Origin: a virus
Taxonomy: Duplodnaviria; Caudoviricetes
Reading direction: 5' to 3' (one strand)
IMG/VR virus record: IMGVR_UViG_3300033076_000375
Span: 96,001 to 160,000 of that record
DNA: 64,000 nt
Position numbers and translations under genes: made by a program. Shown here piece by piece: positions 3 through 58,806 of this stretch. Within the stretch, counting starts at the first letter, position 1, and the number at the start of each line of letters is the position of its first letter. The notes under the pieces are model-generated. The model was not told where the DNA came from and did no database searches. It saw nothing but the letters and a program-made list of their open reading frames with translations.

Positions 3-527
3 TTAGACTCCGCTACCAGTAGTATCAGTGCAGTAAACCTCACACTAACTGGTAAAGTGTCGGCAGTTGAATTAGCTACTGAAAAAGTATCGTCTAACTT
101 AATCCCCAAAACAACTAACACATTTGATATCGGTGAAGCTACTAAAAAGTTTAAAGACTTATACTTAGCTGGCAACATTAACATCGGTACACAGACTATC
201 TCTCCTACTGCTAATGGTATCAGTATAACAGGTAATTTAGAAGTTATCACAGCAAATGTGACTACGTTAAATGCAGAAACAGTCAATACAACTAGCCTAA
301 ATACTGACGTAGCAACGGTTAATACTCAATTGGTCATAAATAGTACTATAGATGCTACTTCCACGGATACAGGCTCTATCGTAACAGCAGGCGGCGTCGG
401 CATTATGAAAGATTTGTATGTAGGTGGTTCGATTCATTTAGCGAACGGTCTCGGTGGGACTGGTTCAAAAGGTGCAATCAACTACAATGACGGTGTAGAT
501 AGTATCGATTTTAATTTTAACGGATAA
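3..527 (+). CDS. C-terminal part of a tail/virion fibre protein (5'-truncated by the window); type-E C-terminus
   Basis: The frame is open from base 3 (LDSATSSISAVNLTLTGK precedes the track's GTG start). Fibre motifs LIPKTTNTFDIGEATKKFKDLYLAG and ATSTDTGSIVTAGGVGI. The C-terminus INYNDGVDSIDFNFNG resembles that of 1419-5642. Confidence 0.8.
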   Translation, partial: LDSATSSISAVNLTLTGKVSAVELATEKVSSNLIPKTTNTFDIGEATKKFKDLYLAGNINIGTQTISPTANGISITGNLEVITANVTTLNAETVNTTSLNTDVATVNTQLVINSTIDATSTDTGSIVTAGGVGIMKDLYVGGSIHLANGLGGTGSKGAINYNDGVDSIDFNFNG

Positions 528-532
528 AATTT

Positions 533-1384
533 ATGACAAGTACAATTGGTGCAAGACTAGTTAATGATGGTACGCTAATCACAGCAGGGGAGTTTGATGA
601 AACTCTCCAGACCACTCATTCTATCAAAGCTACCGGAGTCTTTGCTGAAGAATTTGATGAGGTTACATTACCTGCAGGTTTACCTTCAGGTGGTTCTATT
701 CAATTCAACGGAACAACTCAGTATCTAACGATATTGGGTGATATTGACTTTGGTTTCGGGACAGATGATTTTACAATCGAAGGATGGTTCTTCTTACGTA
801 GCACAGCCCACATGCGTCTATGGTATTTCCCAGGTGGAGATACACTAGAAGTTAATGATGGCGTTCTTTACTACTGGGATGGTACTGACCAAAATGGTGT
901 ACAAACATCAGGTCCAAGTGCGATTCCTCAACAACAGTGGTTTCATATCGCATTAGAAAAACATAATGGAACAGTTGATGTGTATATTAATGGTCAATCA
1001 CATATAACTGACTTAACTCCATATTCAGGTACAAACAGTCGTGCTATGGCAATTGGTGCAGACTTAGACGGTAACAACCCATTGTATGGATATGTTACTA
1101 ACATTAGAGTTGTCAAGGGTGTTGCAGTTTATCGCGGTGAATTCAATATGCCTATCGAATCTTTATCTGATACACAAAATACTGTATTGTTGTTGAAAGT
1201 TGCGAACCAAACAGATATGTTACTGGACTCATCATCAACTAACAAACAGATAACCAATAACGGTAATGCACCGTTTAATTCAATTACTCCATTGACTACA
1301 ACATACAATGGCGCAATGAAACAACTAAAGTCAGGAACTTTGCAAGTAGCAAATATCATTGACGAAGTAACAACTATAAGTTAA
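533..1384 (+). CDS. Triple-FDE-repeat cap protein carrying an inserted LamG/concanavalin-A-like lectin domain
   Basis: LamG-type motifs SIQFNGTTQYL, FGTDDFTIEGWF, WFHIAL and GYVTNIRVVKG. The flanking repeats are homologous to 5652-5879. Confidence 0.75.
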   Translation: MTSTIGARLVNDGTLITAGEFDETLQTTHSIKATGVFAEEFDEVTLPAGLPSGGSIQFNGTTQYLTILGDIDFGFGTDDFTIEGWFFLRSTAHMRLWYFPGGDTLEVNDGVLYYWDGTDQNGVQTSGPSAIPQQQWFHIALEKHNGTVDVYINGQSHITDLTPYSGTNSRAMAIGADLDGNNPLYGYVTNIRVVKGVAVYRGEFNMPIESLSDTQNTVLLLKVANQTDMLLDSSSTNKQITNNGNAPFNSITPLTTTYNGAMKQLKSGTLQVANIIDEVTTIS

Positions 1385-1418
1385 TACATTATAGAAAAAC
1401 CAAAAGGAAATATAAAAA

Positions 1419-4400
1419 ATGGCAAAGTTAAAAGACTCTAGAGTTTACGGTAATCTCGACATTGATAGTGTATTAACCGTTTCAAGCGACACAACTATCA
1501 ACGGTAACCTAACAGTTACTGGTAATACTATCTACTCTTATGTAGATACTATGAAGATTACTGACCCAATCTTAGAGATGGGTGGTGCAGATGCTGGCGC
1601 ACTATCAAGTGATGACAACAAAGACCGCGGTTCATTGTTGCATTATTATGACGGTGGCGTAGTTGATGCGTTCATGGGCTGGGACAACTCAGCAAGCGAA
1701 TTCGCATTAGGTAGCAACGTATCTGTAACTAACGAAGTAGTCACATTCAATACATATGGTAACTTACGTGTTGGCACTATCTTTGGTAGCGGCGCAGGCT
1801 TAACAGCTATCCCTGGTAGCAACGTAACTGGTACAGTCGCATATGCGAACTTCTCATCATATGCAGGCATTGTTACAGCAAGCGCACAACCAAACATCAC
1901 ATCTGTTGGTACATTAGTTGATTTAGATGTCACTGGTGCTGCTAATATCGGCGGCGCATTAGATGTCACGGGTGGCGCAACAGTCGGTGGTGACTTAGGT
2001 GTCGATGGTAATGCTACTGTCTCTGGTAACTTGACTGTTACCGGTACAATCTACGCTAACGTTGCAGGTTCATTGACAGCTCCTGGTACAACTACTCAAG
2101 TATTGTTTAACGATGCAGGCGCAGTTAATGCTGTTGCTGGTTTCACGTTCAACAAAACAACACACTCTCTAACATTGAGCGGTGACGTAACTGGTGATAC
2201 AATCATCGGTAACTTGTTCTCAGGTAATGGTGCTAATTTATCTAGCATCACTGGTTCAAATGTAACTGGTTATGTAGCTAACGCAACTCATGCAAACATT
2301 GCTGATGCTGCTAACGTTGCTTATTCAGTTGACGGTGCAAACGTTGCTGGCGAAGTCGATGTAGCAAACACAGTTTCAAATCCAGCTCAAGGTAATATTA
2401 CTTCAGTTGGTTCATTGACATCACTTACTGTTGTTGGTAACATCTCTGGACAAAACAATCTAGCAATTACACACAATGCCACATTCGGCGGTAATATTAC
2501 TGTTACAGGTGATGTAAGCGGTGCAAATGGCACATTCTCTGGTACACTAGATGTTACAGGTAATGCAACTGCTGATAACATTAGCACTGGTATCGTTGAT
2601 GCTACAGGTAATGTCAATGGAGCTAACTTCAACACAACTGGTACTGCTAACATTGGCAACTTGAAGATTGCAGGTACTACAGAAGGTAACTTAGTTCCAT
2701 CTTCTAACGTTGCATACAACTTGGGTAACTTGACAAACCGTTGGAATGACTTGTATCTAAGTGGTAACACAATTTATTTGGGTGACCAAACAATCGAAGC
2801 TAACGCATCATCATTGTTCACAAGTGCTGACTTGGCTGCTAATAACATTACAGCAACAGCAAACGTTAACGGTGGCAATGTTATCGCTACAAACTTAGTT
2901 AAAGGTGCTACATTAGAAGGTACTTTAACGGTTAACTCAAATGCACAACCTAACATCACTTCTGTTGGTACTCTAGTATCATTGGATGTTACTGGTAACG
3001 TGTCTGCTGGTAATATTAAGACGGACCACTTGCTATATGCAAACGGTACACCTTGGGACTTACAACAAGCTGCTGGTTCTACTGGTCAATTACAATTTAA
3101 TGATGGAAATGATTTTGCTGCAAGCGCAAACTTGACATACAGTGATACTGGTGCAGGTACATTAACCGCTGCTGGTAATATCGCTGCTGCTAAGTTGTCA
3201 TCTACTGGTGACACTACAGTTGGTGCTGACCTTTCAGTTACAGGTAATGCGTCTGTAACCGGTGACATTACTGGTGCTTCTATCGACATTTCTGGTACAG
3301 CTACTTCAGGTAATGTATCAACTACAAACGTAACTGCTTCTGGTAACGTAACTGTTACAGGTAATGTATCAGCTACTAATGTTGTTACAAATGATGTTGT
3401 TGCATCATCTGGTGATTTGACTCTAAGCGGTCAAGGTTCTGACGCAAACGTTGTTCTAGCTCCAACAGGCACAGGTACAATTTCTGCTTCTAGTAAGCGC
3501 ATCACTAACGTAGCTACTCCAACTGCTGATTCTGATGCAACAACAAAAGCGTATGTTGATTCTGTTGCACAAGGTTTGTCAGTTAAGAATTCTGTACACT
3601 TAGCAACAACACAAGCTCTAGCTGCAACATACAATAATGGTACAGACGGAGTAGGAGCTACATTGACAAGTGCAATGGCAGTTGCGTTGACTATTGATAA
3701 TCATAATGTTGATGTTGGTGACCGTATCTTGGTTAAGGATCAAGGCACTAATCATCTATTTGAAAACGGTATTTACGAAGTAACTAATGCAGGTGCGTTG
3801 GGCACAAATTGGGTATTGACTCGTGTTGCTGACATGAACCAAGTTGCTGAAGTTTACAGTGCATTCGTTTTCGTTGATGAAGGTACAGTAAACAAAAACA
3901 CTGGTTGGGTATGTACTGCGACTGACGAAGATTTTACTACTTTGGGTACTGATGATTTAACGTTTACTCAGTTCTCTGGTGCTGGTGCATACTCTGCTGA
4001 CGGTGGCCTATCATTAAATGGTACTGTCTTCAGTGCAGTAGTTGACAACTCAACAATCGACTTAGACGGTAATGGTGCATTGCATGTTAAAAATGGTTTA
4101 ACTCTTGTTACACCAAATATTGGTGCTGCTACTGGTACAAGTTTAGACTTGACAAACGGTGCTAATGTTGGTGGTGACTTAGCAGTTACTGGTAACGTTG
4201 ATGCAAATAACTTCAACGGTACATTCTATGGTAATTTCGTAGGTACAGTTGATGCGACAGTTGGCGCTGCTGGTGCTAACACACAAATTCAATTTAACGA
4301 TGCTGGTAACATCGGTGCAAATGCTAATTTCACTTACAACAAGTCTACTGATACATTATCTGTTGGTAACATTTCAGTTGGCACTGATGTAACCGTTTCA

Positions 4401-5642
4401 GGTGATTTAACTGCAACTAACTTAACAGGTACATTACAAACTGCATCTCAAACTAACATTACTAGTGTTGGTACACTAGGTACATTAACTGTTACTGGTA
4501 CTGCAACAGTTGGCAACGTTTCTACAACCGGTTCAGTCACTGCAGGCACTCTAGCAGGTGATGGTTATCAAATTGGTAATATTACAGGTGCAAACGTTAC
4601 TGGTTATGTAGCAAATGCAGACCACGCATCATTGGCTGATACAGCAAACGTTGCATTGTCTGTCAACGGGGCAAACGTATCAGGTGACGTTTCTGGTGCA
4701 AACCACGCAAACATCGCTGACGTTGCAAATAGTGTTTCGGGTTCTAATGTAGTTGGTCAAGTTGGTAATGCATTAGTTGCAGGCACAGTTTATACTGCTG
4801 CTCAACCAAATATCACTTCCGTTGGCACATTGACTGGTTTGACTGTATCAGGTAACGTTGCTACCGGTGGCATCTTAACTGATAACTACTATTATGCAAA
4901 CGGTGCTCCGGTTGACTTCCAAACTGCTGCTGGTAATGCAGGTGAAATTCAATTCAGAGCTGCTGGTTCAAACGACTTATCAGCAAGTGCAAACTTCAAG
5001 TTCAATAGTTCAACAAACGTATTGACAGTTACGGGTAACGTATCAGTTTCTGATACATTGTCTGCTGTTGATGTTTCTGCAACCAACTTGACAGGTACAC
5101 TAACTACTGCTGCACAACCAAATATCACTTCTGTTGGTACACTAACTAGTGTAACAGTAAGCGGTGTTTCAACTTTGGGTGGAGTAGGTAACGTTAAGAT
5201 TACAGGTGGTACATCAGGTCAATATCTACAAACTGATGGTACTGGTTCATTGTCTTGGGCTACAATCAACACAAGTTTGATTGCTAATGGCACAAGTAAC
5301 GTTTCTATCCCAGCAGCAGACGGTAATGTATTCATTAACGTCGGTGCTACTGAAATTATCGAAGTTTCAGGTGTTGGTGCAAACATCACTGGTGTACTAG
5401 ATGTTTCTGGTAACGTAACTGCTAACAACATTACTGCAGCCAACGTAATCGTTGCTGAAGGTGGTATTGCTGCTAACAGTGCAATCACTGGTACAGTTAA
5501 AGTTGCTGGTGGTATGAGTGCTACAGGTAACATCTACACAGGTAAAGCTGTTGGTTTCGCTAATAACAATGGTGGAACAGACAGTGCTGCTTATATTCAA
5601 TTCAACTCTAGTGCAAATAGCTTAGACTTTATCTTCAACTAA
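1419..5642 (+). CDS. Large fibre protein (1407 aa), probably abundant
   Basis: Repeated AQPNITSVGTL and QxQFNDAG motifs; RITNVATPT..DATTKAYVD followed by a DRILVKDQ..NGIY..WVLTR phage fibre domain; SD AAAAGGA; strongly GGT/GCT/AAC-biased codons. Confidence 0.85.
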   Translation: MAKLKDSRVYGNLDIDSVLTVSSDTTINGNLTVTGNTIYSYVDTMKITDPILEMGGADAGALSSDDNKDRGSLLHYYDGGVVDAFMGWDNSASEFALGSNVSVTNEVVTFNTYGNLRVGTIFGSGAGLTAIPGSNVTGTVAYANFSSYAGIVTASAQPNITSVGTLVDLDVTGAANIGGALDVTGGATVGGDLGVDGNATVSGNLTVTGTIYANVAGSLTAPGTTTQVLFNDAGAVNAVAGFTFNKTTHSLTLSGDVTGDTIIGNLFSGNGANLSSITGSNVTGYVANATHANIADAANVAYSVDGANVAGEVDVANTVSNPAQGNITSVGSLTSLTVVGNISGQNNLAITHNATFGGNITVTGDVSGANGTFSGTLDVTGNATADNISTGIVDATGNVNGANFNTTGTANIGNLKIAGTTEGNLVPSSNVAYNLGNLTNRWNDLYLSGNTIYLGDQTIEANASSLFTSADLAANNITATANVNGGNVIATNLVKGATLEGTLTVNSNAQPNITSVGTLVSLDVTGNVSAGNIKTDHLLYANGTPWDLQQAAGSTGQLQFNDGNDFAASANLTYSDTGAGTLTAAGNIAAAKLSSTGDTTVGADLSVTGNASVTGDITGASIDISGTATSGNVSTTNVTASGNVTVTGNVSATNVVTNDVVASSGDLTLSGQGSDANVVLAPTGTGTISASSKRITNVATPTADSDATTKAYVDSVAQGLSVKNSVHLATTQALAATYNNGTDGVGATLTSAMAVALTIDNHNVDVGDRILVKDQGTNHLFENGIYEVTNAGALGTNWVLTRVADMNQVAEVYSAFVFVDEGTVNKNTGWVCTATDEDFTTLGTDDLTFTQFSGAGAYSADGGLSLNGTVFSAVVDNSTIDLDGNGALHVKNGLTLVTPNIGAATGTSLDLTNGANVGGDLAVTGNVDANNFNGTFYGNFVGTVDATVGAAGANTQIQFNDAGNIGANANFTYNKSTDTLSVGNISVGTDVTVSGDLTATNLTGTLQTASQTNITSVGTLGTLTVTGTATVGNVSTTGSVTAGTLAGDGYQIGNITGANVTGYVANADHASLADTANVALSVNGANVSGDVSGANHANIADVANSVSGSNVVGQVGNALVAGTVYTAAQPNITSVGTLTGLTVSGNVATGGILTDNYYYANGAPVDFQTAAGNAGEIQFRAAGSNDLSASANFKFNSSTNVLTVTGNVSVSDTLSAVDVSATNLTGTLTTAAQPNITSVGTLTSVTVSGVSTLGGVGNVKITGGTSGQYLQTDGTGSLSWATINTSLIANGTSNVSIPAADGNVFINVGATEIIEVSGVGANITGVLDVSGNVTANNITAANVIVAEGGIAANSAITGTVKVAGGMSATGNIYTGKAVGFANNNGGTDSAAYIQFNSSANSLDFIFN

Positions 5643-5651
5643 GGAAGATAA

Positions 5652-5879
5652 ATGGCTACTATAGCAGCTAGATTGAATAGCTCAGGTACACTCTACGCCA
5701 GCAATGGCGTAGTGTTTAATGAAATTAGTCAATCTAACATAAGCATCACTCCTTCGGGGGTGTTTGCTTATCAATTTGACGAAGTTTCAGGTACACTAAA
5801 TAATAGAGCGATGCAACAATACGCCAATGGCGTAGTAAGAATTTCTGGAGTTTTTGACGAGACTACTGGGATTGCATAA
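5652..5879 (+). CDS. 75-aa triple-FDE-repeat cap protein with no payload domain
   Basis: SD AAGGA. Three repeats end FNE, FDE and FDE and are colinear with the termini of 533-1384. Confidence 0.75.
   Translation: MATIAARLNSSGTLYASNGVVFNEISQSNISITPSGVFAYQFDEVSGTLNNRAMQQYANGVVRISGVFDETTGIA
5739..5771 (+). terminator. cUUCGg tetraloop hairpin / candidate intrinsic terminator inside the 5652-5879 CDS
   Basis: CACTCC-TTCG-GGGGTG stem (one G-U pair), extendable by ATAAGCA/TGCTTAT. The core stem is followed by TTTGCTTAT. Confidence 0.6.
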
Positions 5880-5902: not shown

Positions 5903-7543
5903 ATGGCACTATTACGTTCAGGAACACGAGTTTACGGTAACGCTCAAATCGATACCGTTTTAACCGTTGCTGGTACGGTAGCGGCTACCTCAACTACATC
6001 TGGTGCACTACAAATTACAGGCGGCGCAGGCGTTGGTGGTAATCTATATGTTGGCAATAACATTGTAACATCTAAGGATGTTTCGGCTAACAACGCTACA
6101 TTTACTGGTAACTTAATTATCAACGGGAATATTGTATATTCTAATGTTGATACAATGAATATCAAAGATCCGGTCATCGAACAGGGTGGAAGTCCTAATG
6201 GCGCTGCTCTGACCAATAATGATAACAAAGACCGTGGGCAACTTTTACACTACTATACAACGGAACCCGTTGATGCGTTCATGGGCTGGGATAATTCTGC
6301 CGGTGAGTTCATCATGGGTAGTAATGTTACTGTTAGTAATAACGTTGTTACGGTTAATGAATATGGTAACATACATGCCAACTACTTTATTGGTAACGGT
6401 AGTCAACTTACAGGCATCTCAACATCTTCACTGACTGGTAATTTTCATGCGTGTGTGATTTCAAATGTAAGTAACATTATTGCAGGTTCAACACTTCAAA
6501 TCGTTTCTGATTATACTGATACTAACTACCCAGCAGGTGTGTTTACTATTAATCAATTAGGTCCAGTATCTATCACTATGACTGATGCATGGGCAAGCGG
6601 TGGCACAAATAAAGATGCTTATACTAACTATTTGAACGGTATCATCAACACTCAAAACGTTTCAGTGACTTTTGGTATTGCTAATGCAACATTTGATGTA
6701 AAATCAACTGATACTATTACAATCGGTTCTGCAACTATTACAGGTGCAAACATTGTAGCACTAGGTATCAGTGGTACTGGCGGAACATATACGATACCGA
6801 GTTCATATTTTAACTCTACACCGCAAACTTCTGCCAGTGATAGTGTTAGTGTCAACTTGACAACATCTCGTGGAGTATATTCTGCTACTGGTAATACGCT
6901 AACAAATAATCAACCAATACCATTCAATATCACCGCATTCTCTGGTTCATTCCCGTCAAGTTCAGTTCCATATTGGAATGTGAATCAGACATTCTCATGG
7001 ACTGCAACAAAGACTTCGGGCGCAGTCGTTGCTTCCGGTAACCTGTCATACGCTAACTCAGTAGGTGGTGTGTCTGGGTCATTAACATCTACTGGAGAAA
7101 CTTCAGGTACGAGTGCTTCACTTGATAGTACTTTAACATATACGTTAACTAGTAGCGATTATATCGGAGCTGGTGCATATGGTGCTGGTACTCGTCAAAT
7201 GACAAGTAGCGTTTCTGGTACAGTAAACGCTGCAACAAAATATTATCCATTGTTCTGGAAGACTACTACTGACAGCACAATACCAACATTTACAACTAGT
7301 GATTCACATAATAGTAACAACTATGCAACTGGTCAAGGTGCAAATACAACGACTACTGCAAGTAACTATACATGGCTCGCTACTCCAAATACTACATCTC
7401 ATACATTCAAACACGTATTCTTAGGATCGGATATTGTTGACGTTCCTGATGTTACAGGAACAACAACTATCTCTGGTCAAACATATAGCGTATGGGGTTT
7501 CACTAATTTTAGTCAAGTAACAACGATTGTAACTACATCATAA
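5903..7543 (+). CDS. Fibre protein; N-terminal region paralogous to 1419-5642
   Basis: Shares RVYGN..ID.VLTV and DNKDRG.LLHYY..VDAFMGWDNSA with 1419-5642; ANYFIGNGSQLTG repeat; S/T-rich beta C-terminal region. Confidence 0.8.
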   Translation: MALLRSGTRVYGNAQIDTVLTVAGTVAATSTTSGALQITGGAGVGGNLYVGNNIVTSKDVSANNATFTGNLIINGNIVYSNVDTMNIKDPVIEQGGSPNGAALTNNDNKDRGQLLHYYTTEPVDAFMGWDNSAGEFIMGSNVTVSNNVVTVNEYGNIHANYFIGNGSQLTGISTSSLTGNFHACVISNVSNIIAGSTLQIVSDYTDTNYPAGVFTINQLGPVSITMTDAWASGGTNKDAYTNYLNGIINTQNVSVTFGIANATFDVKSTDTITIGSATITGANIVALGISGTGGTYTIPSSYFNSTPQTSASDSVSVNLTTSRGVYSATGNTLTNNQPIPFNITAFSGSFPSSSVPYWNVNQTFSWTATKTSGAVVASGNLSYANSVGGVSGSLTSTGETSGTSASLDSTLTYTLTSSDYIGAGAYGAGTRQMTSSVSGTVNAATKYYPLFWKTTTDSTIPTFTTSDSHNSNNYATGQGANTTTTASNYTWLATPNTTSHTFKHVFLGSDIVDVPDVTGTTTISGQTYSVWGFTNFSQVTTIVTTS

Positions 7544-8402: not shown

Positions 8403-10277
8403 ATGACAGGTTATAGTTTAAAATCAGTTAAAGGTATCATAACAGCAGATGTTTTGACTGCACCTGATGGTAACATTCAACTAGGTAATGTAACTATCAG
8501 TAATAGTTTGGGTAACGTTACTCAATCAGATTTCTTGCCGTTTAGCTTAACAATCAATCCAGAAAACTTAGTCATCAACGTTGATGCTGTGGACGCAGGT
8601 GACGACATACATTGGTTATGGACATGGCAACAAACTACGTTGCCTTACGCACGTGCTACAATTACTAACCAGCAACAGTTAAGTGTTCCGTTATATAAAG
8701 ACGGTACATATGTGTTTAACAACTTTGCATCGAATGTAATGCACGGTAACATGACTCAAGGGCATCATGGTTATTTCAAGTGGATCGACGGCGCCGGTAC
8801 TGAGAACTTAATCGACTGGGCTAGTAACTATACACATACTACTGCATCACATGCAAGTATCAATGGTGGTGCAAACACTACAGTTCAGCAGTATTCATTC
8901 ACAGTTCCTTCCTCAATCACAATCCCGACGTTAACTGCACCTAATGTTAGTTATAATGTTGCTGTTGTAAACAACGCATACTATTTGTCAGGTGATGCAG
9001 GTGAAGGTACTAACGTTACACTAGGACCTGTTCGCAGAGGTGGCACATACACATTTAACTTAGATACTAGTTTATTAGGACATAACTTCTATATCACTAC
9101 TGATAACGGTACTGGTTTTGTTGCAAATACATATGTAGGTGAATACACTACTGGTATTACTGGTAGTAGAAATGACGGTTCTACTGGCAAAACTACGTTA
9201 GTTTGGAACGTTGCAAATACTGCTCCAGACACATTGTTCTATCAATCAGCACAGGATGCTAACATTCGTGGTGCAATTACAGTTAAAGATTTAACAGTTG
9301 AAACTAACATCAACGGTAATCCAGTTGTATACTTTCAGCACATGCACGAAGGTCACAAGACTCCTATCGAGATTAAACCAATTCCAACGATGGTTAATCA
9401 AATGTGTTTGGTTTATGATGCCGGTTTACAAGAGTTCGTTCCGCAGGATATGGCAACATATGTTGACAACACTCCTAGCTTTAAAAACAAGATTCGTGAA
9501 GTTGCAGGTACTGCAACATTAGTTGCACCGAGTGGTGTTTCTTTAGTACCTACAGTTCTAGTTGTTGAGAACGTAAGCTACTTGCCATTAGTTGGTAATA
9601 AAGATGGTGACATTGCGTTTGATTCGTATACTGACACATTATATGTTTGGGGTGGTAATACTTGGAATAGTACAAAACCAAATACGATTTCTGCAACTAA
9701 TATTACTGGTACTGTAGCAAACGCAACGGCTGCTGTAACTGCTACTACTGCAAGTACAGTCACTACAAATGCACAACCCAACGTTACAAGTGTAGGTACA
9801 TTAGCAAACTTGACTGCTAGTGGTACTATTAATTTAACTACTGCGTCAAGTGTTAGTTTGGGCAACATTGCTAACGTTAAGATTGACGGTGGTGTTGCAA
9901 ACTATGTATTGAAAACTGATGGAACTGGTAACTTATCTTGGACTGCACAATCAGGTGGTTTGACAACGTTTACTAAAACATATTTGTCAAAGGGTACTAT
10001 TACTGAGGCAACCGGGACATTGCGCTATTACATTCATGCTACCTCTACTTTAACTGCGATTAATGCATACTTGGGCACAACTGGCTTGACACAAACAGTT
10101 GCTGTCGTAAAGAAGAATGGGACCTCAATAAATACTATTACGATACCGGCAAATACTGCTACATTGAATCAAACTGGTCTTTCTATTAGTTTAGCTGCAG
10201 GGGACTACTTGACCGTAGATATTACTCGAGGTAGTAGCGCAACGGATTTATACATTAATTTTGTGTATCAAGGATAA
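8403..10277 (+). CDS. Fibre protein with cupredoxin-like module(s) and a type-D C-terminal beta-sandwich
   Basis: RRGGTYTF..GHNFYI..APDTLFYQ module; AQPNVTSVGTL repeat; C-terminus KKNGTSI..AGDYLTVDI..ATDLYINFVY is shared with 16291-20508. Confidence 0.75.
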   Translation: MTGYSLKSVKGIITADVLTAPDGNIQLGNVTISNSLGNVTQSDFLPFSLTINPENLVINVDAVDAGDDIHWLWTWQQTTLPYARATITNQQQLSVPLYKDGTYVFNNFASNVMHGNMTQGHHGYFKWIDGAGTENLIDWASNYTHTTASHASINGGANTTVQQYSFTVPSSITIPTLTAPNVSYNVAVVNNAYYLSGDAGEGTNVTLGPVRRGGTYTFNLDTSLLGHNFYITTDNGTGFVANTYVGEYTTGITGSRNDGSTGKTTLVWNVANTAPDTLFYQSAQDANIRGAITVKDLTVETNINGNPVVYFQHMHEGHKTPIEIKPIPTMVNQMCLVYDAGLQEFVPQDMATYVDNTPSFKNKIREVAGTATLVAPSGVSLVPTVLVVENVSYLPLVGNKDGDIAFDSYTDTLYVWGGNTWNSTKPNTISATNITGTVANATAAVTATTASTVTTNAQPNVTSVGTLANLTASGTINLTTASSVSLGNIANVKIDGGVANYVLKTDGTGNLSWTAQSGGLTTFTKTYLSKGTITEATGTLRYYIHATSTLTAINAYLGTTGLTQTVAVVKKNGTSINTITIPANTATLNQTGLSISLAAGDYLTVDITRGSSATDLYINFVYQG

Positions 10278-10280
10278 CAT

Positions 10281-10562
10281 ATGAAATTTGAAGAATTTAA
10301 CGATATTTTTAGAACACCGTTTCTACTACCATGGGAGCATGACTATTATTCTGCGTTTTTTACTGAACAAAAAACACCGCAGGAATTTTTAGATTATGTG
10401 TATCAAACTATTCCTGGACTAAGTGGTGTTTGGTATGAAGTTGTAGGTAACATGGCATATTTTATTGTAAAAAAGGGTACAGTTGTCCCCGAAGATTTTG
10501 CTGATATATTGAACGTAGTCACTGACATACCAGAGCAACCAACAGATGAGGGGACAGTATAA
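10281..10562 (+). CDS. Small acidic protein (type-D cassette; possible assembly chaperone)
   Basis: 93 aa, acidic, with non-fibre composition; positional counterpart of 20533-20829. Confidence 0.7.
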   Translation: MKFEEFNDIFRTPFLLPWEHDYYSAFFTEQKTPQEFLDYVYQTIPGLSGVWYEVVGNMAYFIVKKGTVVPEDFADILNVVTDIPEQPTDEGTV

Positions 10563-11806
10563 TGTACGTTAAATTAAACTTTACAGCGGATAAACAACTT
10601 AACACTATTTTTCGTATTGTTGACCAGATTATCAATAATTCAGGTATTACTAGCATTGCTACCTTAAGTAGTACTGCAACATCAAACTCATGGTGGTCAG
10701 GATTGTTATCAAATTTAGATACTGCAAACAGTGAAATCATCAGAACTGGCACAGGTAATACAGCATTAACATCAAACACTAAGTCAAAGTACGTAAAATC
10801 TGCCGCGGAAACAGCATCAGATTCACATGAGTGGACAGTTGAATTCTCAACATATGACGCAACCAGTACAAAATATTATGTTCAACATTATGGGACTGGT
10901 GCAGGTGCTTTACTTAGTCTTGGTAGAGTGGGTGTTAGTATTTCAGGCTCAATGACTACAGGCGCGACTCCTGTAGCACAAACTGACACTGCATCTACTG
11001 CCGGCACGTCAGTTGGATTGAATACTACTGGAACAGCATTAGCTAGTTCCGCAAACATGGCGTATTCATCAACCGGTTTTACTAACGTTAGAACATTCAT
11101 AATGTACATCACTGATAAGTGTATGATATGGGCTACTACTAATACTGCAACATATAATAGTGGTTTTGGCGGAACATACAGTAATTCTGCTAACTATTGT
11201 GGACCTTGGATTTATAGTCAATACACTAGATTTGATTATCACAATACTAATGCGAACGGTATCATCCCACTCGCATTTACTAACTTTACTATTGCAAACG
11301 GTCAAGGTTTTGGTGGAGCTACAAACTACTGGAATGCTACAGAAAACGTTTTAGCAACTAGTCAGGCAACTCAAACACTACGAGTAATGAATTGTGTTAA
11401 CGCTTATCCTACTACTGGAGCTAGTTTTCCGATTGTTGTTGCCCCTACAGTTAGTTGGGGCATAGGGTCACGTTATAGCGATACTGCTGCATTGAATGCC
11501 ACAGCAGCCGGGGCAGTAGGCACAGCTACAGCGGCAACATACGGTGCAGTAATTTTTAACACAGTAAGTACACGATACCCAAGTGCCGATTTAAAAACAC
11601 AAACATTTGGAATGTTGCCGATGACTTGGCGACACCTCAACTATTACAATGCCGGTGGTGATATAAGCGCACAGGGTAACTTTTATGTGTTTAATGGTGA
11701 TTATTTCCCAGGTGACGAATATAGTTATGGTGGAAAAACCTACAAAATCATCCCGACATTTATCGGATACAGCCAACGTGTTGGCATTGCAATACCCAAG
11801 GAATAA
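10562..11806 (+). CDS. Putative fibre-tip / receptor-binding subunit (paralog of 11809-13044)
   Basis: TAATG overlap; FTNVRTF, QYTRFDYHN..NGI.P and FNGDY.PGD.Y...RVGIAIPKE are shared with the next gene. Confidence 0.75.
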   Translation: MYVKLNFTADKQLNTIFRIVDQIINNSGITSIATLSSTATSNSWWSGLLSNLDTANSEIIRTGTGNTALTSNTKSKYVKSAAETASDSHEWTVEFSTYDATSTKYYVQHYGTGAGALLSLGRVGVSISGSMTTGATPVAQTDTASTAGTSVGLNTTGTALASSANMAYSSTGFTNVRTFIMYITDKCMIWATTNTATYNSGFGGTYSNSANYCGPWIYSQYTRFDYHNTNANGIIPLAFTNFTIANGQGFGGATNYWNATENVLATSQATQTLRVMNCVNAYPTTGASFPIVVAPTVSWGIGSRYSDTAALNATAAGAVGTATAATYGAVIFNTVSTRYPSADLKTQTFGMLPMTWRHLNYYNAGGDISAQGNFYVFNGDYFPGDEYSYGGKTYKIIPTFIGYSQRVGIAIPKE

Positions 11807-11808
11807 CG

Positions 11809-13044
11809 ATGTTCATCAAACTTCAATACACAGCAGATACTAGAATTACAGTACCACTTCGTACTCTAAAGGAAATTATTAATAATAGTGCAATAACTAG
11901 TGTAAGTTCACTTCAATCAGCTTGGACCACCTGGGACACTGGTTTAAAAGCAAACTTTGACACAGCAAACAGTAATATTGTAAGAACTAATAGTCCAACT
12001 AGTACAGTCGCACATTTTTGTGTAAACCCGTCGGCATCGTATTCATACCTAACATACGGGGAATTTGCATTCACTATAGAACAAGCTACGTATGATGCTT
12101 CTAGTTCTAAGATATATACCCAGTTATCTAGTGCAACAACTACTCAAACAGTATTACTAAATATCGGGAGTGCAATTACAGGTGGAACTATAGCATCCGC
12201 AAGTGCAGCAGTTACTGTCTCAGAAAGTGCCAGTTCAACTGGTTATGGAACTTCATTGACAGTGGGTGGCAATACGTTAGGTAGTGGTAATGCATTGTTA
12301 ACTAGCGGTAGTGGATTCTCAAACGTCAGAACTTTTTGGGCGTATGTCACTGATAGATGTTTCTTCTTTGCTACTACAAATGGAACAACATATAACAGTG
12401 GCTGGGGAACTACTTATAATGATAGTACTAAATTCGGCGGACCGTTCTTTCAAACACAGTATACTCGATACGACTATCATAATTTAGATAGTAACGGTAT
12501 TGTTCCTGTAATCTATACTAGTCCTCGCGGCACAGGTATTGGGTACGGAACTACCAATGATTTGACGACAGTGCAGAATATTTTATATACTACTAACACG
12601 ACTACAGTTCCTATTAGAGCCCATAGTATTGTTTCTGCTCTCCCTCAAGTGGGATCTGCCTGGCCAAAGATTTATAATCCATATGTTAACATGACATATG
12701 CAAGTAGATCCACCCAATCATACGCAGCTAACCAAATACAAGTTATAGGTACAACAACGTCATCTACATTACCTAGTTATGCCGGTGGTATTTCTACAGC
12801 CGCTTCAACTAGATATCCTAATGCTACGTTGACTGCAACAGGGTTTGGTTTAATGCCGTTTGGTTGGGAAGCAAATTATTACGGAAATCACGGTGGTAAT
12901 GCAAGTGAACAATGTGGAGTATACATCTTTAATGGCGATTATGTTCCGGGTGATACTTTTACGTACAACAACAAAGTATACATGATTTGGCCTATGACCT
13001 CTGGGTATAGCAACAGAGTCGGGTTTGCTGTTCCGATGGAATAA
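11809..13044 (+). CDS. Putative fibre-tip / receptor-binding subunit (paralog of 10562-11806)
   Basis: Colinear similarity over the full length; ends RVGFAVPME. Confidence 0.75.
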   Translation: MFIKLQYTADTRITVPLRTLKEIINNSAITSVSSLQSAWTTWDTGLKANFDTANSNIVRTNSPTSTVAHFCVNPSASYSYLTYGEFAFTIEQATYDASSSKIYTQLSSATTTQTVLLNIGSAITGGTIASASAAVTVSESASSTGYGTSLTVGGNTLGSGNALLTSGSGFSNVRTFWAYVTDRCFFFATTNGTTYNSGWGTTYNDSTKFGGPFFQTQYTRYDYHNLDSNGIVPVIYTSPRGTGIGYGTTNDLTTVQNILYTTNTTTVPIRAHSIVSALPQVGSAWPKIYNPYVNMTYASRSTQSYAANQIQVIGTTTSSTLPSYAGGISTAASTRYPNATLTATGFGLMPFGWEANYYGNHGGNASEQCGVYIFNGDYVPGDTFTYNNKVYMIWPMTSGYSNRVGFAVPME

Positions 13045-13046
13045 TT

Positions 13047-13415
13047 ATGGCACAACCTAAGATAAAAATTGCATGTGTTGCAAATCTCTATACTAGAGAA
13101 ATGCGTTTTGAAAAAGCAGGTGATACTGAACTTGGTCACAAGCATCCGTTCAACCATATTACATTTTTATCTTCAGGTAAGTTAAAAGTTGAAACAGAAC
13201 TTGGTGTTTCTGAATTTTCTGCCCCCCAAATGGTTTTCATTCACAAAGACTATATACACGAATTGACTGCATTAGAAGATAACACCGTAGCTTATTGCAT
13301 TCATGCATTAAGAAACGGTGACGGTATTGATGACATTATTGATGAAGATATGATACCTGCGGGAATGAACGCACCTGAAATTTTTGAAATAGTGAAAACT
13401 GTTAGCCTAGGATAA
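13047..13415 (+). CDS. Cupin-fold protein
   Basis: GHKHPFNHITFLSSGKL (cupin motif 1) and VFIHKDYIHELTALED (motif 2). Confidence 0.75.
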   Translation: MAQPKIKIACVANLYTREMRFEKAGDTELGHKHPFNHITFLSSGKLKVETELGVSEFSAPQMVFIHKDYIHELTALEDNTVAYCIHALRNGDGIDDIIDEDMIPAGMNAPEIFEIVKTVSLG

Positions 13416-13417
13416 TT

Positions 13418-16258
13418 ATGTCAAGCCAATTAAATATATACAATTTCCCAGATGCGTATTCAACGTTAGTTAGTGGATATACTGGGACAGTAAAATATAT
13501 ATCAAGTACAGGTAGCAATTCAAACAACGGAGATGCAGCCACTACTCCGTACTTAACGGTGGATTATGCGTATTCACAAACATCTGCTGTATCAAGAGTA
13601 ATGTTTGTGATACTTGAAGGCACGTATACCATGACAGCCGTTTCTAATGGCAACTCAGTCGCACTACAAGATGGTGGGAATGAACGAGTTTTTGTTGGAT
13701 GTCCAGGTAGAACTATAATTCAATGGACTGCTTCTACCGCTGATAGAGATTCTCCTATGGTGCAGTTCACTAATGCCGCTAGTGCTATGTACGGTATTAT
13801 TGCGAAACGTAACAACAACAGTCGTACAACAAGTTACATGACTGCTTTCTTTAAGGCGGTTGCTAAGGGTAATTTATATAATTGCGTTTTTACTGAAACA
13901 AACTCAGGAAATCTATGGAGTTATCAATACGATAACTATGGGCAAAACAATATTACTATTAGAAATTGTACTTTTTATAACGCCGCAGCTCCCGTCGGTA
14001 ACTATTCTAATGCAGGTACCTGTGCAACAATCGATACAGTTTTCAACACTACTTGTACGACTGGCGGCACTGAAACAAACGTATTAAAGTCGCAAACAGT
14101 TAACAGTACAACATACGTAACAACTGGAGTAACTACTGCTGGTGTATATTCTGGTACATACGCATGGAACGGTGCGATGACAGTACCCATATCAACTGCT
14201 GTAGTTTCTGCTACGACAGGTTCCCCCACGACATCGATATTTAGTGATGGTACAACATCATACAAATACTATGCATTTACTACCAGTGGATCAATTACAT
14301 TTAGCACCGGCGGAGCTGTAGATATTTTAACAGTTGCTGGTGGCGGCGGTGGTGGCGGCGGAACATTAGGTGGCGGGGGCGGCGCGGGTGGCTTACTAGT
14401 TACTTCAACTACTGTGTCTGGTGGCACAGCTACTAATTTAACCGCTGATGCTGCTTATAACAGTCAAGGTTGGGTCACTGCAAGTACAGATTATACCGGT
14501 ACGACTAGAGCATATTCGTTTAGTGCTACACTTCAAGCATCATCAGGCGGCGCAAGAACAATAGCTTTACCTGAAATAGATACTTACTTTGAAGTATTAG
14601 TTTCTGCAGGTAATATGGAGCCTTTATGTGGTTTAGCTAGAGATTCTAGTACAGGTGGATATAATAATGTACCTTGCCTCTATTTGTTTAGCGGGGCAGG
14701 ATATGGTGGGGTGACTGGTGGAACTACCCTTGGCGCATTCGTGGCAGGAGATGTCCTGCAAGTTGCATATAAGGCTTCTACAAATAAAGTTTACTTTGGT
14801 AAAAATAATACCTGGTATACTAGTCCAACTGCTACTGCAGGTTTCTCTATTCCCGGCACAGGCTCACTTAGATTTATTATGATGGCAGGATCATCTGCTG
14901 GATCAACATCGTCAGGTACATTTAGAAATTCTGCTCAAAACTCTTATGCTGCGCCGAGTGGTTACAGTGTATTCAGTTCACCGACATATACTATCACTGT
15001 CGGTGCTGGCGGCGCATCTACTACTAACGTTGGTAACAATGGTAGCAACACTGTGGTATCCGGTACTGGTGTCAGCATCGCCGCAGTTGGTGGTGGTGCT
15101 GGCGGCACGTATGGCACAACCAGCACTATCGGTCAAAACGGTGGCTCTGGAGGCGGTGGCACGTACTATCCGACCACTACAGCCGGCGTGGGTGTTTACC
15201 CAGGATCAACATATTTAAGTCAGACTCGTCAGGGCTACAACGGTGGCGTTGGTAGAAACTTCTCAGTTGGTGCTGGTACTGGTGGAGGTGGCGGTGCTGG
15301 TGCTGCGGGTGCCGATGCTGGTGCAAATGATCCAGGACCATCCGGCGCTGGTGGTGTTGGACTCAGACTTAATTATAATGGGTCAAATGTGTACTACGCC
15401 GGCGGCGGGGGTGGCGGTGGATACGGTGCTGGCGGAGATATCGGCGGAGCAGGCGGTCTCGGTGGTGGTGCTGGTGGAGCCGGTGTTGTTCTGGGAACAA
15501 GCGACACTACTAGGGGTGCAGTTGCACCTACATCAGGCGTCGGTGGTGCTGCTGGTGTTAACACCGGCGGCGGGGGTGGCGGTGCAGCAGGCACCGGCGG
15601 CGCAGGCGGTTCTGGTATTGTTATTATTAGATATACAGTACAACCTGCAGGACTATATGCCAGTGCAAACACCGCGGTCGGTGGCTCTAATCTAACGTTT
15701 ACTCTATATTCTGCAAACACTGGTAATATTCCATATACAATTACTGGGATTACATCTGATGTAATCAATAATGCGTCCCTTACTGGAAACTTTGTTATGT
15801 CATCTGGATCGGGAACAGCAACATTTACAGTTAAACCGTTGTTAACATCGACATACACAATGAATATGTCCGCAGACGGGTCAAACATAAACGTTGCGTT
15901 ATCTCCTAACGTATCTATTACGACTGCAATTAACGGTATAGGGTATTCTGCTAATACTGCTTACTTAGCAAGCCCAATCACAGGACAGATGAACATCCCA
16001 AAAACCGGATTAACTGTCACTGACTTCTCATTATCTGCTAAATCTAATGGGATTGAGGGGCAAATGAATATTCCAGATATGGTTACTACTGTTACCGATA
16101 TAACATTAGGTACAAAATCATTGCTTCCTGTATTTGGAAATTTACAGTCTAATACAATTCTACCGTATACTACTATCACTACAACTACGGCTGGTCCTAT
16201 CGACCAGGGTATTATTAAATTATTCGGTGAGAGTCCAAATCGAGAGTACTGGATATAA
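13418..16258 (+). CDS. Multi-domain adhesin: beta-helix-like N-terminus, glycine-rich domain with a nested SPRY-like insert, C-terminal anchor
   Basis: KYISSTGSNSNNG..PYLTV; ILTVAGGGGGG..GGSGIVIIRY; insert with YFEV, GDVLQVA..VYFGKNNTW and YAAPSGY. Confidence 0.75.
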   Translation: MSSQLNIYNFPDAYSTLVSGYTGTVKYISSTGSNSNNGDAATTPYLTVDYAYSQTSAVSRVMFVILEGTYTMTAVSNGNSVALQDGGNERVFVGCPGRTIIQWTASTADRDSPMVQFTNAASAMYGIIAKRNNNSRTTSYMTAFFKAVAKGNLYNCVFTETNSGNLWSYQYDNYGQNNITIRNCTFYNAAAPVGNYSNAGTCATIDTVFNTTCTTGGTETNVLKSQTVNSTTYVTTGVTTAGVYSGTYAWNGAMTVPISTAVVSATTGSPTTSIFSDGTTSYKYYAFTTSGSITFSTGGAVDILTVAGGGGGGGGTLGGGGGAGGLLVTSTTVSGGTATNLTADAAYNSQGWVTASTDYTGTTRAYSFSATLQASSGGARTIALPEIDTYFEVLVSAGNMEPLCGLARDSSTGGYNNVPCLYLFSGAGYGGVTGGTTLGAFVAGDVLQVAYKASTNKVYFGKNNTWYTSPTATAGFSIPGTGSLRFIMMAGSSAGSTSSGTFRNSAQNSYAAPSGYSVFSSPTYTITVGAGGASTTNVGNNGSNTVVSGTGVSIAAVGGGAGGTYGTTSTIGQNGGSGGGGTYYPTTTAGVGVYPGSTYLSQTRQGYNGGVGRNFSVGAGTGGGGGAGAAGADAGANDPGPSGAGGVGLRLNYNGSNVYYAGGGGGGGYGAGGDIGGAGGLGGGAGGAGVVLGTSDTTRGAVAPTSGVGGAAGVNTGGGGGGAAGTGGAGGSGIVIIRYTVQPAGLYASANTAVGGSNLTFTLYSANTGNIPYTITGITSDVINNASLTGNFVMSSGSGTATFTVKPLLTSTYTMNMSADGSNINVALSPNVSITTAINGIGYSANTAYLASPITGQMNIPKTGLTVTDFSLSAKSNGIEGQMNIPDMVTTVTDITLGTKSLLPVFGNLQSNTILPYTTITTTTAGPIDQGIIKLFGESPNREYWI

Positions 16259-16263
16259 TCCTT

Positions 16264-16272
16264 GACTAAATA
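16264..16272 (+). promoter_or_regulatory. T4-late-like promoter GACTAAATA
   Basis: Intergenic; TAAATA + 6 nt + AAGG; 18 nt before the ATG. The same 9-mer recurs at 27659, 36442 and 43768. Confidence 0.7.
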
Positions 16273-16290
16273 GTATATAAGGGTTATAAA

Positions 16291-19200
16291 ATGGCATCAC
16301 CAATCACAGTAATCAAATCACGCGGTATAGACACTACCGGTGATTATGTCGTTAATAGTATATCAAGTACCGGCAATGTATCTGCTGGAAATATCAAATC
16401 TGACCATTTGCTATATGCAAACGGTACACCCTACGCATTCACATCAAATGCAGCCGGAACAAATACGCAAGTTCAGTTCAATGATGCAAACAACTTTGCA
16501 GGGTCTGCAAATCTAACATTCAATAAAACTACAGGTACATTAACTGCTAATTTCTTTGTTGGTGATGGTTCACAACTAACCGGCTTACCTGCGAGCTACA
16601 CTGATACAAATGCAAACAGTGCCATTGACGCACGTGTAACTAAGTCATTTATTGACAACTTGAACGTAGATGCTGATACGTTAGATGGGTTATCTTCTTT
16701 AGATTTTGCAACTGCTGCACAAGGTACAAAAGCAGACACTGCACTTCAAGCAGCAGACTTATCTGGGTATGCCACTGAATCATATGTAGGTAATGCGGTT
16801 GCTAATTTAGTTAACTCTGCACCTGCTTTATTAGATACATTAGGTGAACTAGCAAACGCAATCGGTAATGACGCTAGTTTCACCACAACAATTACCAATC
16901 AATTGGCAAACAAAGCAGATACCGCAGATTTATCGACTGTGGCGTTGACTGGTAACTATGCTGACTTGAATAATAAGCCAACACTGTTTGATGGTACGTA
17001 TGCTAACCTAACCGGTAAGCCTTCGTTATTTGATGGTGAATATGCATCATTGGCAAACAAGCCAACATTGTTCAGTGGATCATACTTAGATTTAACAAAT
17101 ACCCCAACGCTATTTGATGGCACTTACGCAAACTTAACAGGTAAACCTTCGTTTGCTACCGTAGCAACAAGTGGTAGTTATACTGATTTGATTGACAAGC
17201 CTTCGTTATTCGATGGTGAATATGCATCATTGGCAAATAAGCCAGCGCTATTTGATGGCACTTATGCAAACTTAACAGGTCTGCCGACTTTATTCGACGG
17301 TGAATATTCTTCTCTTGCAAATAAGCCAAGTTTGTTTGATGGAACATATGCTAACTTAACTGGCAAGCCAACACTAGGCACTGCGGCAGCAACTGACGCT
17401 AATGCATACGCAACAGCGGCACAAGGTACAAAGGCTGATACTGCATTGCAATCAGCAGACTTAGCAGGTTATGCAACTGAGACTTATGTTACAAATGCTA
17501 TTGCAAATATACCTAATCCTGCATCAGTAACAGTTAGTTCAACTGCACCTGCATCGCCCATTGAGGGTGATTTGTGGTTAGATAGTGATACAGGTGAGAT
17601 GAGCATTTACTTTGGTAATGCTTGGGTGGCACCGACAACATCTGTATCAACTGCGTTGACAGTAACAGCCAATGCTCAACCAAACATCACATCAGTTGGA
17701 ACTCTAACTGGCTTAACTGTCGATGGTAATGTTACTGCTAACTATTTCATTGGTAATGGTTCTCAGTTGACTGGCATGTATTCTAATACAAATGCAAATG
17801 CAGCAATCGATGCGAGAGTAACAAAATCATTTGTAGACAACTTATCAGTAGTCGCCAACGTTGCCAATGTTGCGTACTCAGTATCAGGGTCAAATGTATC
17901 TGGACAAGTATCAAATGCACTAGTGGCAGGTACTGTTTACACAAACGCCCAGCCAAACATTACATCAGTTGGTACTCTAACTGGATTAACTGTAACAGGC
18001 TTATTGACTGCTACTGGCACCGGAGTCAAAACAGCAAACATTGTTGATACTTCTGGTACTATCGCTATCAGCACTAGATATAATAATGTGCCTGGTGCGA
18101 TTGGCATAGCTAATGACTTGACTGCACCTGGAAACATAACCGCTAATTATTTCATCGGTGATGGTTCACAATTAACCGGATTACCAGTAAGCTACACAGA
18201 TACAAATGCAAATGCAGCCATTGATGCTCGTGTAACTAAGACATTTGTTGATAACTTGGGTGTAAATGCTAGTACATTGAATGGGCACTCAGATACGTAT
18301 TTTGCTACAAGCACTCAAGGTAGTTTAGCTGATTCAGCAGTTCAACCCGGAGACTTAGCTACAGTCGCTACTAGTGGCTCTTATAATGATTTGTTGAATA
18401 CACCAACACTATTTGATGGCACTTATGCTAACTTAACTGGTAAACCCACACTATTCGATGGTGAGTATGCGTCATTGGCAAATAAGCCAGCACTATTTGA
18501 TGGCACTTATGCTAACTTAACCGGTAAACCCACACTAGGTACAGCAGCCGCTACTAATGCTAATGCATATGCAACTGCGGCACAGGGGTTATTAGCTGAC
18601 TCTGCAATTCAGTCTGGTGCAAACATTAGCGTCTTTACAAACGATAGCGGATATTTAGTTGCGGCTAACTTATCTGGGTATGCAACTGAAACGTATGTAG
18701 GTACCCAAATCAGTAACTTAGTTGATGCAGCACCAGCCACACTAAACACACTAAACGAATTAGCTGCCGCATTGGGAGATGATGCTAATTTTGCAACTAC
18801 TATTGCTAACTCAATTGGTAATAAGTTATCAACATCAGATTTTACAACTACGGCTGATACTTGGTTGGGTACAAAATCAACTACTGATTTAGCTGAAGGC
18901 ACTAACTTATATTATACTACAACTAGAGCAAACAGTGCCATTGATGCACGTGTAACCAAGACGTTCGTTGACAACTTATCAGTAGTTGCAAACGTTGCCA
19001 ACGTTGCTTATTCAGTAGCAGTTGCTAATGTATCAGGCATCGGTAACATTGCTACATTAAACTTAAACGGTAATGCAAGTACTATACTATATGGTAATGG
19101 AACCTTTGCTGCTGCACCAGTAACATATAACGATTCAAATGTTGCTACATACTTACCAAATTATACAGGTAACTTAACTCCTGGTAACATCATCATTAGC

Positions 19201-20508: not shown

Positions 20509-20514
20509 TAAATA
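20506..20514 (+). promoter_or_regulatory. T4-late-like promoter TGATAAATA
   Basis: Overlaps the upstream stop codon; 18 nt before ATG 20533, the same spacing as the GACTAAATA sites. Confidence 0.6.
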
Positions 20515-20532
20515 TTATATAAAAAGAAACAC

Positions 20533-20829
20533 ATGAAACCGGAACTATTACAACAACTATTTGGTATAGAAACTGCAAAAGTTTATATTTTCGACGGATC
20601 TATCCCGGACGATTCTATTTTCACCTCATACGTGACCGAAGAGTTTGCTAAAGCCGCAGGTACAAACCTAATAAATTGTATTGTTTCTTCTGTTCAGGGG
20701 ATTACTGTAGTCTATACACAGGATAATATTCAGGTAGAAGAAGGACAATTTAGATTGTATATTGATTTACCGTTACCAGAGCCTCTAGAAGTTCCTGAAG
20801 AAGTAGTAGAACCCCAAGGACCTCAATAA
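20533..20829 (+). CDS. Small acidic protein (type-D cassette; possible chaperone)
   Basis: 98 aa with an acidic P/E-rich tail; counterpart of 10281-10562. Confidence 0.7.
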   Translation: MKPELLQQLFGIETAKVYIFDGSIPDDSIFTSYVTEEFAKAAGTNLINCIVSSVQGITVVYTQDNIQVEEGQFRLYIDLPLPEPLEVPEEVVEPQGPQ

Positions 20830-20830
20830 T

Positions 20831-21649
20831 ATGTTAATTAAATATAGAATGTTACCCGGCATAACTGTCGCTCAGTTCACGGCTGATATAGTTGGTCTCA
20901 TCGATGGCTCAATTACTGCAACCAGCGGGTTAAGTGCCGGTGCTGACAAAACAAATTCAGTAATCTCAGGCACATACCCTGCAGGTACGTATACTAAAGT
21001 AGGTGCAAGTACAAACACGTTCAGTAAAGTACACAGTATAGACAATACGTATACTCACTATTTCAGAATGACCTTTGACAGCACTAAAATGACTACATTT
21101 AGTGTGGCACAATCTTACACATCAGGCACAGATACATTAGTTAATAGTGTAGCTTATACAGTTAACGTTACACCAAATCCATATCTATCGGCTGCACAAA
21201 TACCGTCAGGTTTAAATATTGTTATTACTAGCAAGAACGTATGGATTTCAAGCATCACTAGTGGTATATCATTTGGATTGTTTGATTTAGGTGCGAATGG
21301 TATTACGTCAACATACACTAATAATATGAAAATGGCATACATTAACACAACCACTGCTACATATGGTATTCCATATGCGTATTCATTGTTGGGAAGTTCG
21401 AGTGCATACACCGCAATTACTGGTAACTTGACTGACATTACAGCGCCTACCCTAGTGTCAAACATTTCTGGAACAGCAATGATTATCGAGAACCCTACAT
21501 TTGTGTCTAACATAAATCAAGGGTATGCGGGCTATGGCGTATATAATTTGTTCAAGTTAAGCAATACAACGATAGCACCGGATAGTATATACAATACTTC
21601 AGGTGTTTCTAGAATCACAGCGGTAAATTACGCAGTAGTAACGGAGTAA
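20831..21649 (+). CDS. Putative fibre-tip subunit (type-D cassette)
   Basis: N-terminus MLIKYRM..IVGLIDG..TATSGLS resembles 10562 and 11809; ends YAVVTE. Confidence 0.7.
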   Translation: MLIKYRMLPGITVAQFTADIVGLIDGSITATSGLSAGADKTNSVISGTYPAGTYTKVGASTNTFSKVHSIDNTYTHYFRMTFDSTKMTTFSVAQSYTSGTDTLVNSVAYTVNVTPNPYLSAAQIPSGLNIVITSKNVWISSITSGISFGLFDLGANGITSTYTNNMKMAYINTTTATYGIPYAYSLLGSSSAYTAITGNLTDITAPTLVSNISGTAMIIENPTFVSNINQGYAGYGVYNLFKLSNTTIAPDSIYNTSGVSRITAVNYAVVTE

Positions 21650-21652
21650 ACA

Positions 21653-22879: not shown

Positions 22880-22882
22880 GAT

Positions 22883-58795: not shown

Positions 58796-58806
58796 GGAGA
58801 AAATAT

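Follow-up and report, generated by a model that had tools for sequence, protein, structure and literature searches.

The window analysed here is a 64,000-nucleotide (nt) stretch of DNA, positions 96,001-160,000 of the IMG/VR virus record IMGVR_UViG_3300033076_000375, whose parent contig is 186 kb long. The source is an uncultured giant phage of the T4 superfamily, as judged by Pfam Gp23 and Gp20 matches just upstream of its fibre genes. Five co-directional genes, all on the plus strand, lie at the start of the window, and they encode a first fibre, a protein of 283 amino acids (aa), a second fibre, a protein of 75 aa and a third fibre. The 283-aa and 75-aa proteins share a module of three short repeats, which we propose is probably the docking domain of a monomeric joint between successive trimeric fibre segments. 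Fibres that precede a module gene are called donors below, and those that follow one are called acceptors.

The gene for fibre 1 (3..527) is cut by the window start; its full open reading frame (ORF) encodes 192 aa and begins 51 nt before the window. Its product ends in ..AINYNDGVDSIDFNFNG, and a donor tip, ..GAINYNDGVDSIDFNFNG, is recognised from the sequence at about 471-524. The candidate joint protein of 283 aa follows (533..1384), with repeat 1 at 551-604, repeat 2 at 611-667 (residues 27-45), a LamG domain at 707-1117 (residues 59-195) and repeat 3 at 1313-1372 (residues 261-280). Fibre 2 (1419..5642, 1407 aa) starts with the acceptor N-terminus MAKLKDSRVYGNLDIDSVL (1419-1478) and finishes with the donor tip ..AYIQFNSSANSLDFIFN (5589-5639), an ending common to about 93 database fibres, in which it lies at the extreme C-terminus. 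The minimal candidate joint, the 75-aa protein (5652..5879), consists of the module only, with repeats at 5661-5729, 5733-5792 and 5808-5870. Its gene starts 9 nt past the fibre 2 stop codon, in the same reading frame as fibre 2, and has an AGGA ribosome-binding site 6 nt upstream. Fibre 3 (5903..7543, 546 aa) has the acceptor N-terminus MALLRSGTRVYGNAQIDTVL (5903-5962) and lacks a donor tip; its equivalent is the most length-variable segment among relatives of this phage (423-1370 aa).

The 75-aa protein is built of three homologous repeats of about 22 residues, of the form x-R/x-L-x-x-x-G-x-h-...-h-[DN]-E, which together make a module of about 72 residues. The 283-aa protein has three matching units, two of them N-terminal and one C-terminal. 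A six-frame scan of the 64 kb with the unit G-x-[LFV]...[FI][DN]E finds three copies in either ORF, with four stray matches elsewhere, and a stricter unit pattern has only these six matches across the whole 186-kb contig. Homology among the repeats was assessed with a profile made from repeat 1 only of 109 family members, at a threshold of 8 bits. The profile reaches this threshold on repeat 3 in 106 members and on repeat 2 in 83, as compared to 2 of 1635 shuffled controls. The three repeats are truly homologous to one another. The domain that separates repeats 2 and 3 of the 283-aa protein matches Pfam Laminin_G_3 (PF13385) with E = 4e-12 and 46.9 bits, above the gathering cut-off of 27.6, a membership that concerns the payload only. 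An earlier note, made from the DNA letters without database searches, had read the 75-aa ORF as three repeats, the ORF at 533-1384 as the same repeats with a LamG domain between the second and third, and both as following fibres that end in a ..S[IL]DFxFN-type motif. The motif scan and repeat-1 profile confirm the first of these statements, the Pfam boundaries bear out the second, and the endings of fibres 1 and 2 agree with the third.

The module defines an unannotated protein family of uncultured large phages. Close homologs of the 75-aa protein number 46; they are 75-79 aa long, and none has a name. With a profile, 155 matches were found among 1.84 billion cluster representatives, and architectures were assigned for the 150 listed, about 143 of which have a real module; the other 7 are long repetitive proteins without one and were set aside. 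When the listed matches are taken together with the 283-aa window protein (P0002), P0004 and P0053, the module stands alone in 27 clusters, comes first with a C-terminal payload in about 50 and comes last, with an N-terminal payload in proteins of up to 2000 aa, in 37. It is split after repeat 2, like the LamG form of the window, in 18 clusters, including the added P0002 and P0053, and after repeat 1 in about 5. Payloads can therefore occupy either terminus or follow repeat 1 or repeat 2, four positions in all. The earlier note had proposed a single defined insertion loop and suggested that homologs be searched for other domains within it. The site after repeat 2 is real and homologs do carry different domains there, but it is one of four permitted positions.

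Among 79 scanned family members, 35 carry LamG, and other payloads include Gly_rich_2, He_PIG, a sialidase N-terminal lectin domain and FN3-like repeats. Some of the payload proteins, up to 2000 aa long, start with MATYYWVGGxGxW. These payloads belong to types of domain that usually occur as single chains. In none of the cluster representatives examined is the module fused to a donor tip or to an acceptor N-terminus, though the genes are nearly contiguous. An apparent match to the tip pattern in representative P0276 was rejected as a chance match in a protein without a real module.

Gene order was surveyed at 24 IMG/VR loci and at 11 loci reached via individual family members. In all of these roughly 35 loci, distant ones included, the order is tip, module, acceptor. 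A fibre with the conserved C-terminus ..G.VGFA..A.I.[FY]N..S[IL]DFxF[NG] is followed by the module gene at a distance of 9-16 nt or beyond one small ORF, and 20-40 nt further on lies a fibre that starts MAxLxxGTRIYG(N/T)..D(T/S).L. The linkage to SLDFxF-ending fibres claimed in the earlier note holds in every homologous locus with a visible upstream gene. The order is kept even in distant phages in which all else is different. L028 has a 355-aa donor, a 1120-aa protein with the module at its end and a 328-aa acceptor with a Peptidase_S74 domain; L040 has an 80-aa mini-donor, a 601-aa module protein interrupted by LamG and Gly_rich_2 and a 625-aa acceptor; and L037 has a donor, a 71-aa module and a 3074-aa acceptor. 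A further distant case, in which the module ends a 1139-aa protein, has it as well. On the 186-kb contig, tips, modules and acceptor N-termini number exactly two each and are arranged as tip-module-acceptor...tip-module-acceptor, and the acceptor N-terminal motif is confined to the two fibres that follow modules.

Most relatives of the window phage have both junctions, the LamG-loaded one first and the bare one second. Across these relatives, ..IDF[NK]FNG tips go with MA[KQ]LK... acceptor N-termini at junction 1, and ..SLDFIF[ND] tips go with MALL[RK]S... acceptor N-termini at junction 2. Because the tip and acceptor types differ consistently between the junctions, the sequences suggest cognate sets by which the order of assembly is fixed. 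On a broader scale, ..LDT[IV]FG tips pair with ..RIYGT acceptors and ..IDFxF/LDFIF tips mostly with ..YGN (L026, L028 and L030 versus L037 and L039). This pairing may reflect donor-acceptor covariation; there are only a few cases, related to each other, and L040 departs from the pattern. In two distant loci a small extra ORF of 57 or 94 aa separates the donor tip gene from the long module gene (L028, 5824-5997; L039, 357-641). The extra ORF of L039 starts MAARYWVGGTDTW, which resembles the N-terminus of the long protein next to it, and a gene fragment or frameshifted start may account for the small ORF in both loci.

The fold of the module was predicted with AlphaFold2. An alignment of 109 diverse module sequences gave an all-beta model of three times three strands, with a predicted local distance difference test (pLDDT) score of 90.4 and a predicted template modelling score (pTM) of 0.74. 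It supersedes a model made with 22 close homologs only, for which the pLDDT was 47. The predicted strands lie at residues 6-8, 14-16 and 21-24, at 31-33, 36-39 and 41-43, and at 54-56, 61-64 and 68-69. Since the same beta1-beta2-beta3 pattern recurs in each repeat, the module is predicted to be an autonomous small beta domain of three equivalent units, and the deep-alignment model thus supports this part of the earlier reading. The repeated strand pattern also makes a pseudo-three-fold geometry plausible. Searches of the PDB (Foldseek, VIA-align wide), BFVD and the ESM Atlas found nothing like the module model except one homologous 74-aa phage protein. A protein atlas feature search with the module returned unnamed viral clusters only. 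Neither the window DNA (megablast) nor the proposed cap and one relative (tblastn) had a match among 50,697 phage records.

We propose, with a probability of roughly 0.6, that the module serves as the docking domain in a monomeric joint, triplicated internally and similar in its working to gp35 of T4. Each joint would connect one trimeric fibre segment to the next and could carry a single accessory domain. In this mechanism, one polypeptide would supply three homologous beta units of three strands each, and the units would form a pseudo-three-fold domain that fits the three-fold tip of the upstream donor trimer. The next acceptor trimer would then be held at its conserved N-termini (MAxLxxGTRIYG..) by the module and the donor tip together. 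The chain in the window phage would consist of the 192-aa root fibre, the LamG-bearing joint, the 1407-aa fibre, the bare 75-aa joint and the 546-aa distal fibre, such that gene order would mirror assembly order. The module tolerates accessory domains at either end or between repeats, which would allow for single-copy display at each joint, of LamG in this case. One module protein per trimer appears to be favoured by the absent fusions, by the single-chain payloads, some of which are very large, and by the three equivalent units per chain. A fusion of the module to a fibre would force a 3:3 arrangement, and the absence of fusions is therefore what a 1:3 mismatch would predict.

The earlier note had taken the module to be a terminal cap. 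Here a monomer on the free end of the preceding fibre would present a receptor-binding domain, with the downstream fibre attached elsewhere. The donor tip is indeed always linked to a module, the payloads are lectin-like, and single-chain tips on trimers have precedents in T2-type gp38 and in PAAR proteins, one of which is encoded by this phage. An acceptor-type fibre always follows, however, in a strict 1:1:1 ratio of tips, modules and acceptor N-termini, and this order is the reason for preferring a joint to a cap. The restriction of the acceptor motif on the contig to the two fibres after modules also argues against a cap, as does the conservation across the whole clade of a bare 75-aa "cap" that lacks a binding domain. 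The module is probably not a terminal cap, and we regard that reading as unlikely.

A spacer made of three copies of the module, with the repeats stacked axially as layers, would be homotrimeric. It would have a 3:3 stoichiometry and three LamG domains per joint. Axial sequence repeats are common in fibre proteins, and the poor AlphaFold2 monomer model obtained without a deep alignment would fit such a spacer, but with a deep alignment the monomer is confidently predicted and compact. The spacer also sits poorly with the lack, among the cluster representatives examined, of any fusion to the trimeric fibre on either side and with payloads that are usually single-chain types, some of more than 1000 aa. 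In addition, the T4 counterpart, gp35, is monomeric (PMC5537660). Taken together, this makes the homotrimer rather improbable. It is very improbable that the module protein is a non-virion assembly chaperone that aids folding or trimerisation of the preceding fibre, like T4 gp38, gp57A or lambda/Mu Tfa: a small gene right after a fibre gene is in the usual position of a tail-fibre assembly gene and 3 of the 79 scanned members match a PHROG family named "tail fiber assembly", but the large surface-type payloads (LamG, Ig-like, beta-helix) match PHROG virion structural families, one related locus has a separate gene that matches Pfam GP38, and some acceptor fibres carry their own Peptidase_S74 chaperone domain.

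Several points weigh against the monomeric joint. We infer the binding between tip, module and acceptor, the 1:3 stoichiometry, the three-fold geometry and the role of LamG. Gene order alone is no proof that the downstream fibre docks on the module, and the conserved acceptor N-terminus could instead bind another site on the virion. The acceptor N-terminus was also considered as a fourth copy of the repeat, for which hhalign gave no support. Given that no PDB chain is similar to the model, the predicted fold is without an outside check. The resemblance to gp35 is not apparent in sequence comparisons. Alignment of the module profile by hhalign with gp35 or with an alignment of gp35-family tower domains gave a probability of at most 7%, the module profile had no match in the T4 genome, and the best comparison of a single repeat with gp35 (P = 8e-4 over 13 columns) is not significant. 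As sequence homology is not demonstrable, the module is called gp35-like in its working and is not filed in the gp35 family.

A wider proposal, which we hold tentatively and at somewhat less than even odds, sees the module as a portable 1:3 symmetry adaptor. The specificities of tip, module and acceptor would be orthogonal, with two kinds at work in this one phage. Such a plug-and-socket system would build multi-segment branched fibres in large phages, and each joint would show one accessory domain that can be exchanged freely, from lectins to beta-helix proteins of more than 1000 aa. The same proposal derives the cryptic docking domain in T4 gp35 from the module or makes the two sisters, with the repeats still recognisable in the module. 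The manner in which a single gp35 chain fits between two three-fold T4 fibres was long unclear and is only now coming into view at low resolution; the family would give one answer in its own sequence, with three repeats for three chains. Its minimal 72-residue form should be easy to express and to solve alongside short peptides of the tip and the N-terminus. Donor tip motif, module and acceptor N-terminus also serve as rules for annotating hundreds of genes now called "hypothetical" in uncultured giant phages, and such three-part rules would let the order of fibre segments be read from a genome. The family points as well to natural sites for placing accessory domains on a fibre.

Other features of the fibre genes extend beyond the junctions. 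Past their first 20 residues, fibres 2 and 3 have a longer N-terminal domain in common (window 1419-1800 and 5903-6400), with the pattern ..DP[IV][IL]E.GG...DNKDRG.LLHYY...DAFMGWDNS..EF..GSNV, and PHROG 697 matches part of this domain. The fibre genes sit after the capsid gene block, and the N-termini of the root fibres have the peptide F[NS]xxxG in common. Behind the Gp23 capsid gene come four fibre-like genes in a row (L035, G000:C1:91633-96527, immediately ahead of the window, and window 3-527), which share this N-terminal peptide in the variants ..FNSVGG[YF][ST]VG, FNAIAGISVG and FSSRSGIKTG, with a donor tip present only on the last of the four. These fibre-like genes may encode the root that anchors the fibre chain, be it to the head, neck or tail. 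Many more fibre and tip cassettes, with other types of ending, occupy window 8403-23137 and 23522-46174. They include acidic proteins of about 95 aa after the fibres at 10281 and 20533, and their endings include repeated ..PFLLMGA/..LIFGG and a glycine-rich ..GGSGIV.IRY.YQ, which matches the Gly_rich_2 payloads on some module proteins.

Among known systems, PAAR proteins (T4 gp5.4, type VI secretion) are similar to the module in concept, in that a single three-repeat chain sits on a trimeric beta end and can bear extension domains. A PAAR protein binds the tip of the central spike and ends the structure, whereas a fibre follows the module. The two are unrelated in sequence, and Pfam PAAR (PF05488) has no match at E <= 0.1 in the 283-aa or 75-aa protein. 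The phage has its conventional single-chain cap for a trimeric spike in a separate 93-aa protein with a PAAR motif (window 59353-59634; PF05488, E = 4e-10). The PAAR gene is directly upstream of a 670-aa ORF without a Pfam match (59631-61643), and ribonucleotide reductase and glutaredoxin genes adjoin (54995-59037). Gp38 of the T2/S16 type is a monomer bound to the trimeric distal fibre tip, where it is the terminal receptor binder and has glycine-rich motifs (see also PMC3157838 and PMC12892980). It is like the module protein in being a single chain on a trimeric fibre tip, but it does not have the triple FDE repeat and no fibre comes after it.

The closest parallel is gp35. The long tail fibre of T4 has the composition (gp34)3-gp35-(gp36)3-(gp37)3, in which gp35, also named the proximal hinge connector, is the monomeric "knee-cap" (PMC5537660). 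A "tower-like" docking domain of gp35, formed by residues 1-21 and 324-372, resembles the fold of the trimeric gp34 C-terminus, and an ILEI-like domain and a carbohydrate-binding module (CBM)-like domain are both inserted between the docking segments; the CBM-like domain binds the phage's own whisker (bioRxiv 10.64898/2026.03.06.709160). This precedent calls for caution over the receptor-binding role that the earlier note gave to the LamG domain. PHROG scans of both window proteins and 79 relatives found no gp35 family (PHROG 1154/19648), and the phrog_1154 profile has no match in the contig, nor any in its control genomes. In gp35 the insert comes after unit 1, and in the window protein it comes after repeat 2, such that the gp35 arrangement is that of the rarer class split after repeat 1. 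The triple repeat of the module is plain to see and ends FDE, the module exists in a payload-free form of 75 aa, there are two joints per fibre chain, and the donor tips and acceptor N-termini have conserved motifs of their own. What is new is an unannotated family with explicit repeats, a minimal form, four payload positions and no detectable homology to gp35. The likeness is one of arrangement. In both systems the gene lies between two fibre genes, in the order 34-35-36 in T4 and as tip-module-acceptor at about 35 loci here. The gp35 product sits between trimeric rods, as the module product would. In gp35, a docking domain of about 70 residues is split around inserts that include a lectin- or CBM-like beta-sandwich, which matches the plan of the 283-aa protein. 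The docking segments of the gp35 family, MAEFGQGYVQTPFLSE, AEFGVNGIRVNYICE and TGKVFGQEFREV, align mutually and each ends hydrophobic-x-E, so that they too look like three short units, each closed by a conserved acidic residue.

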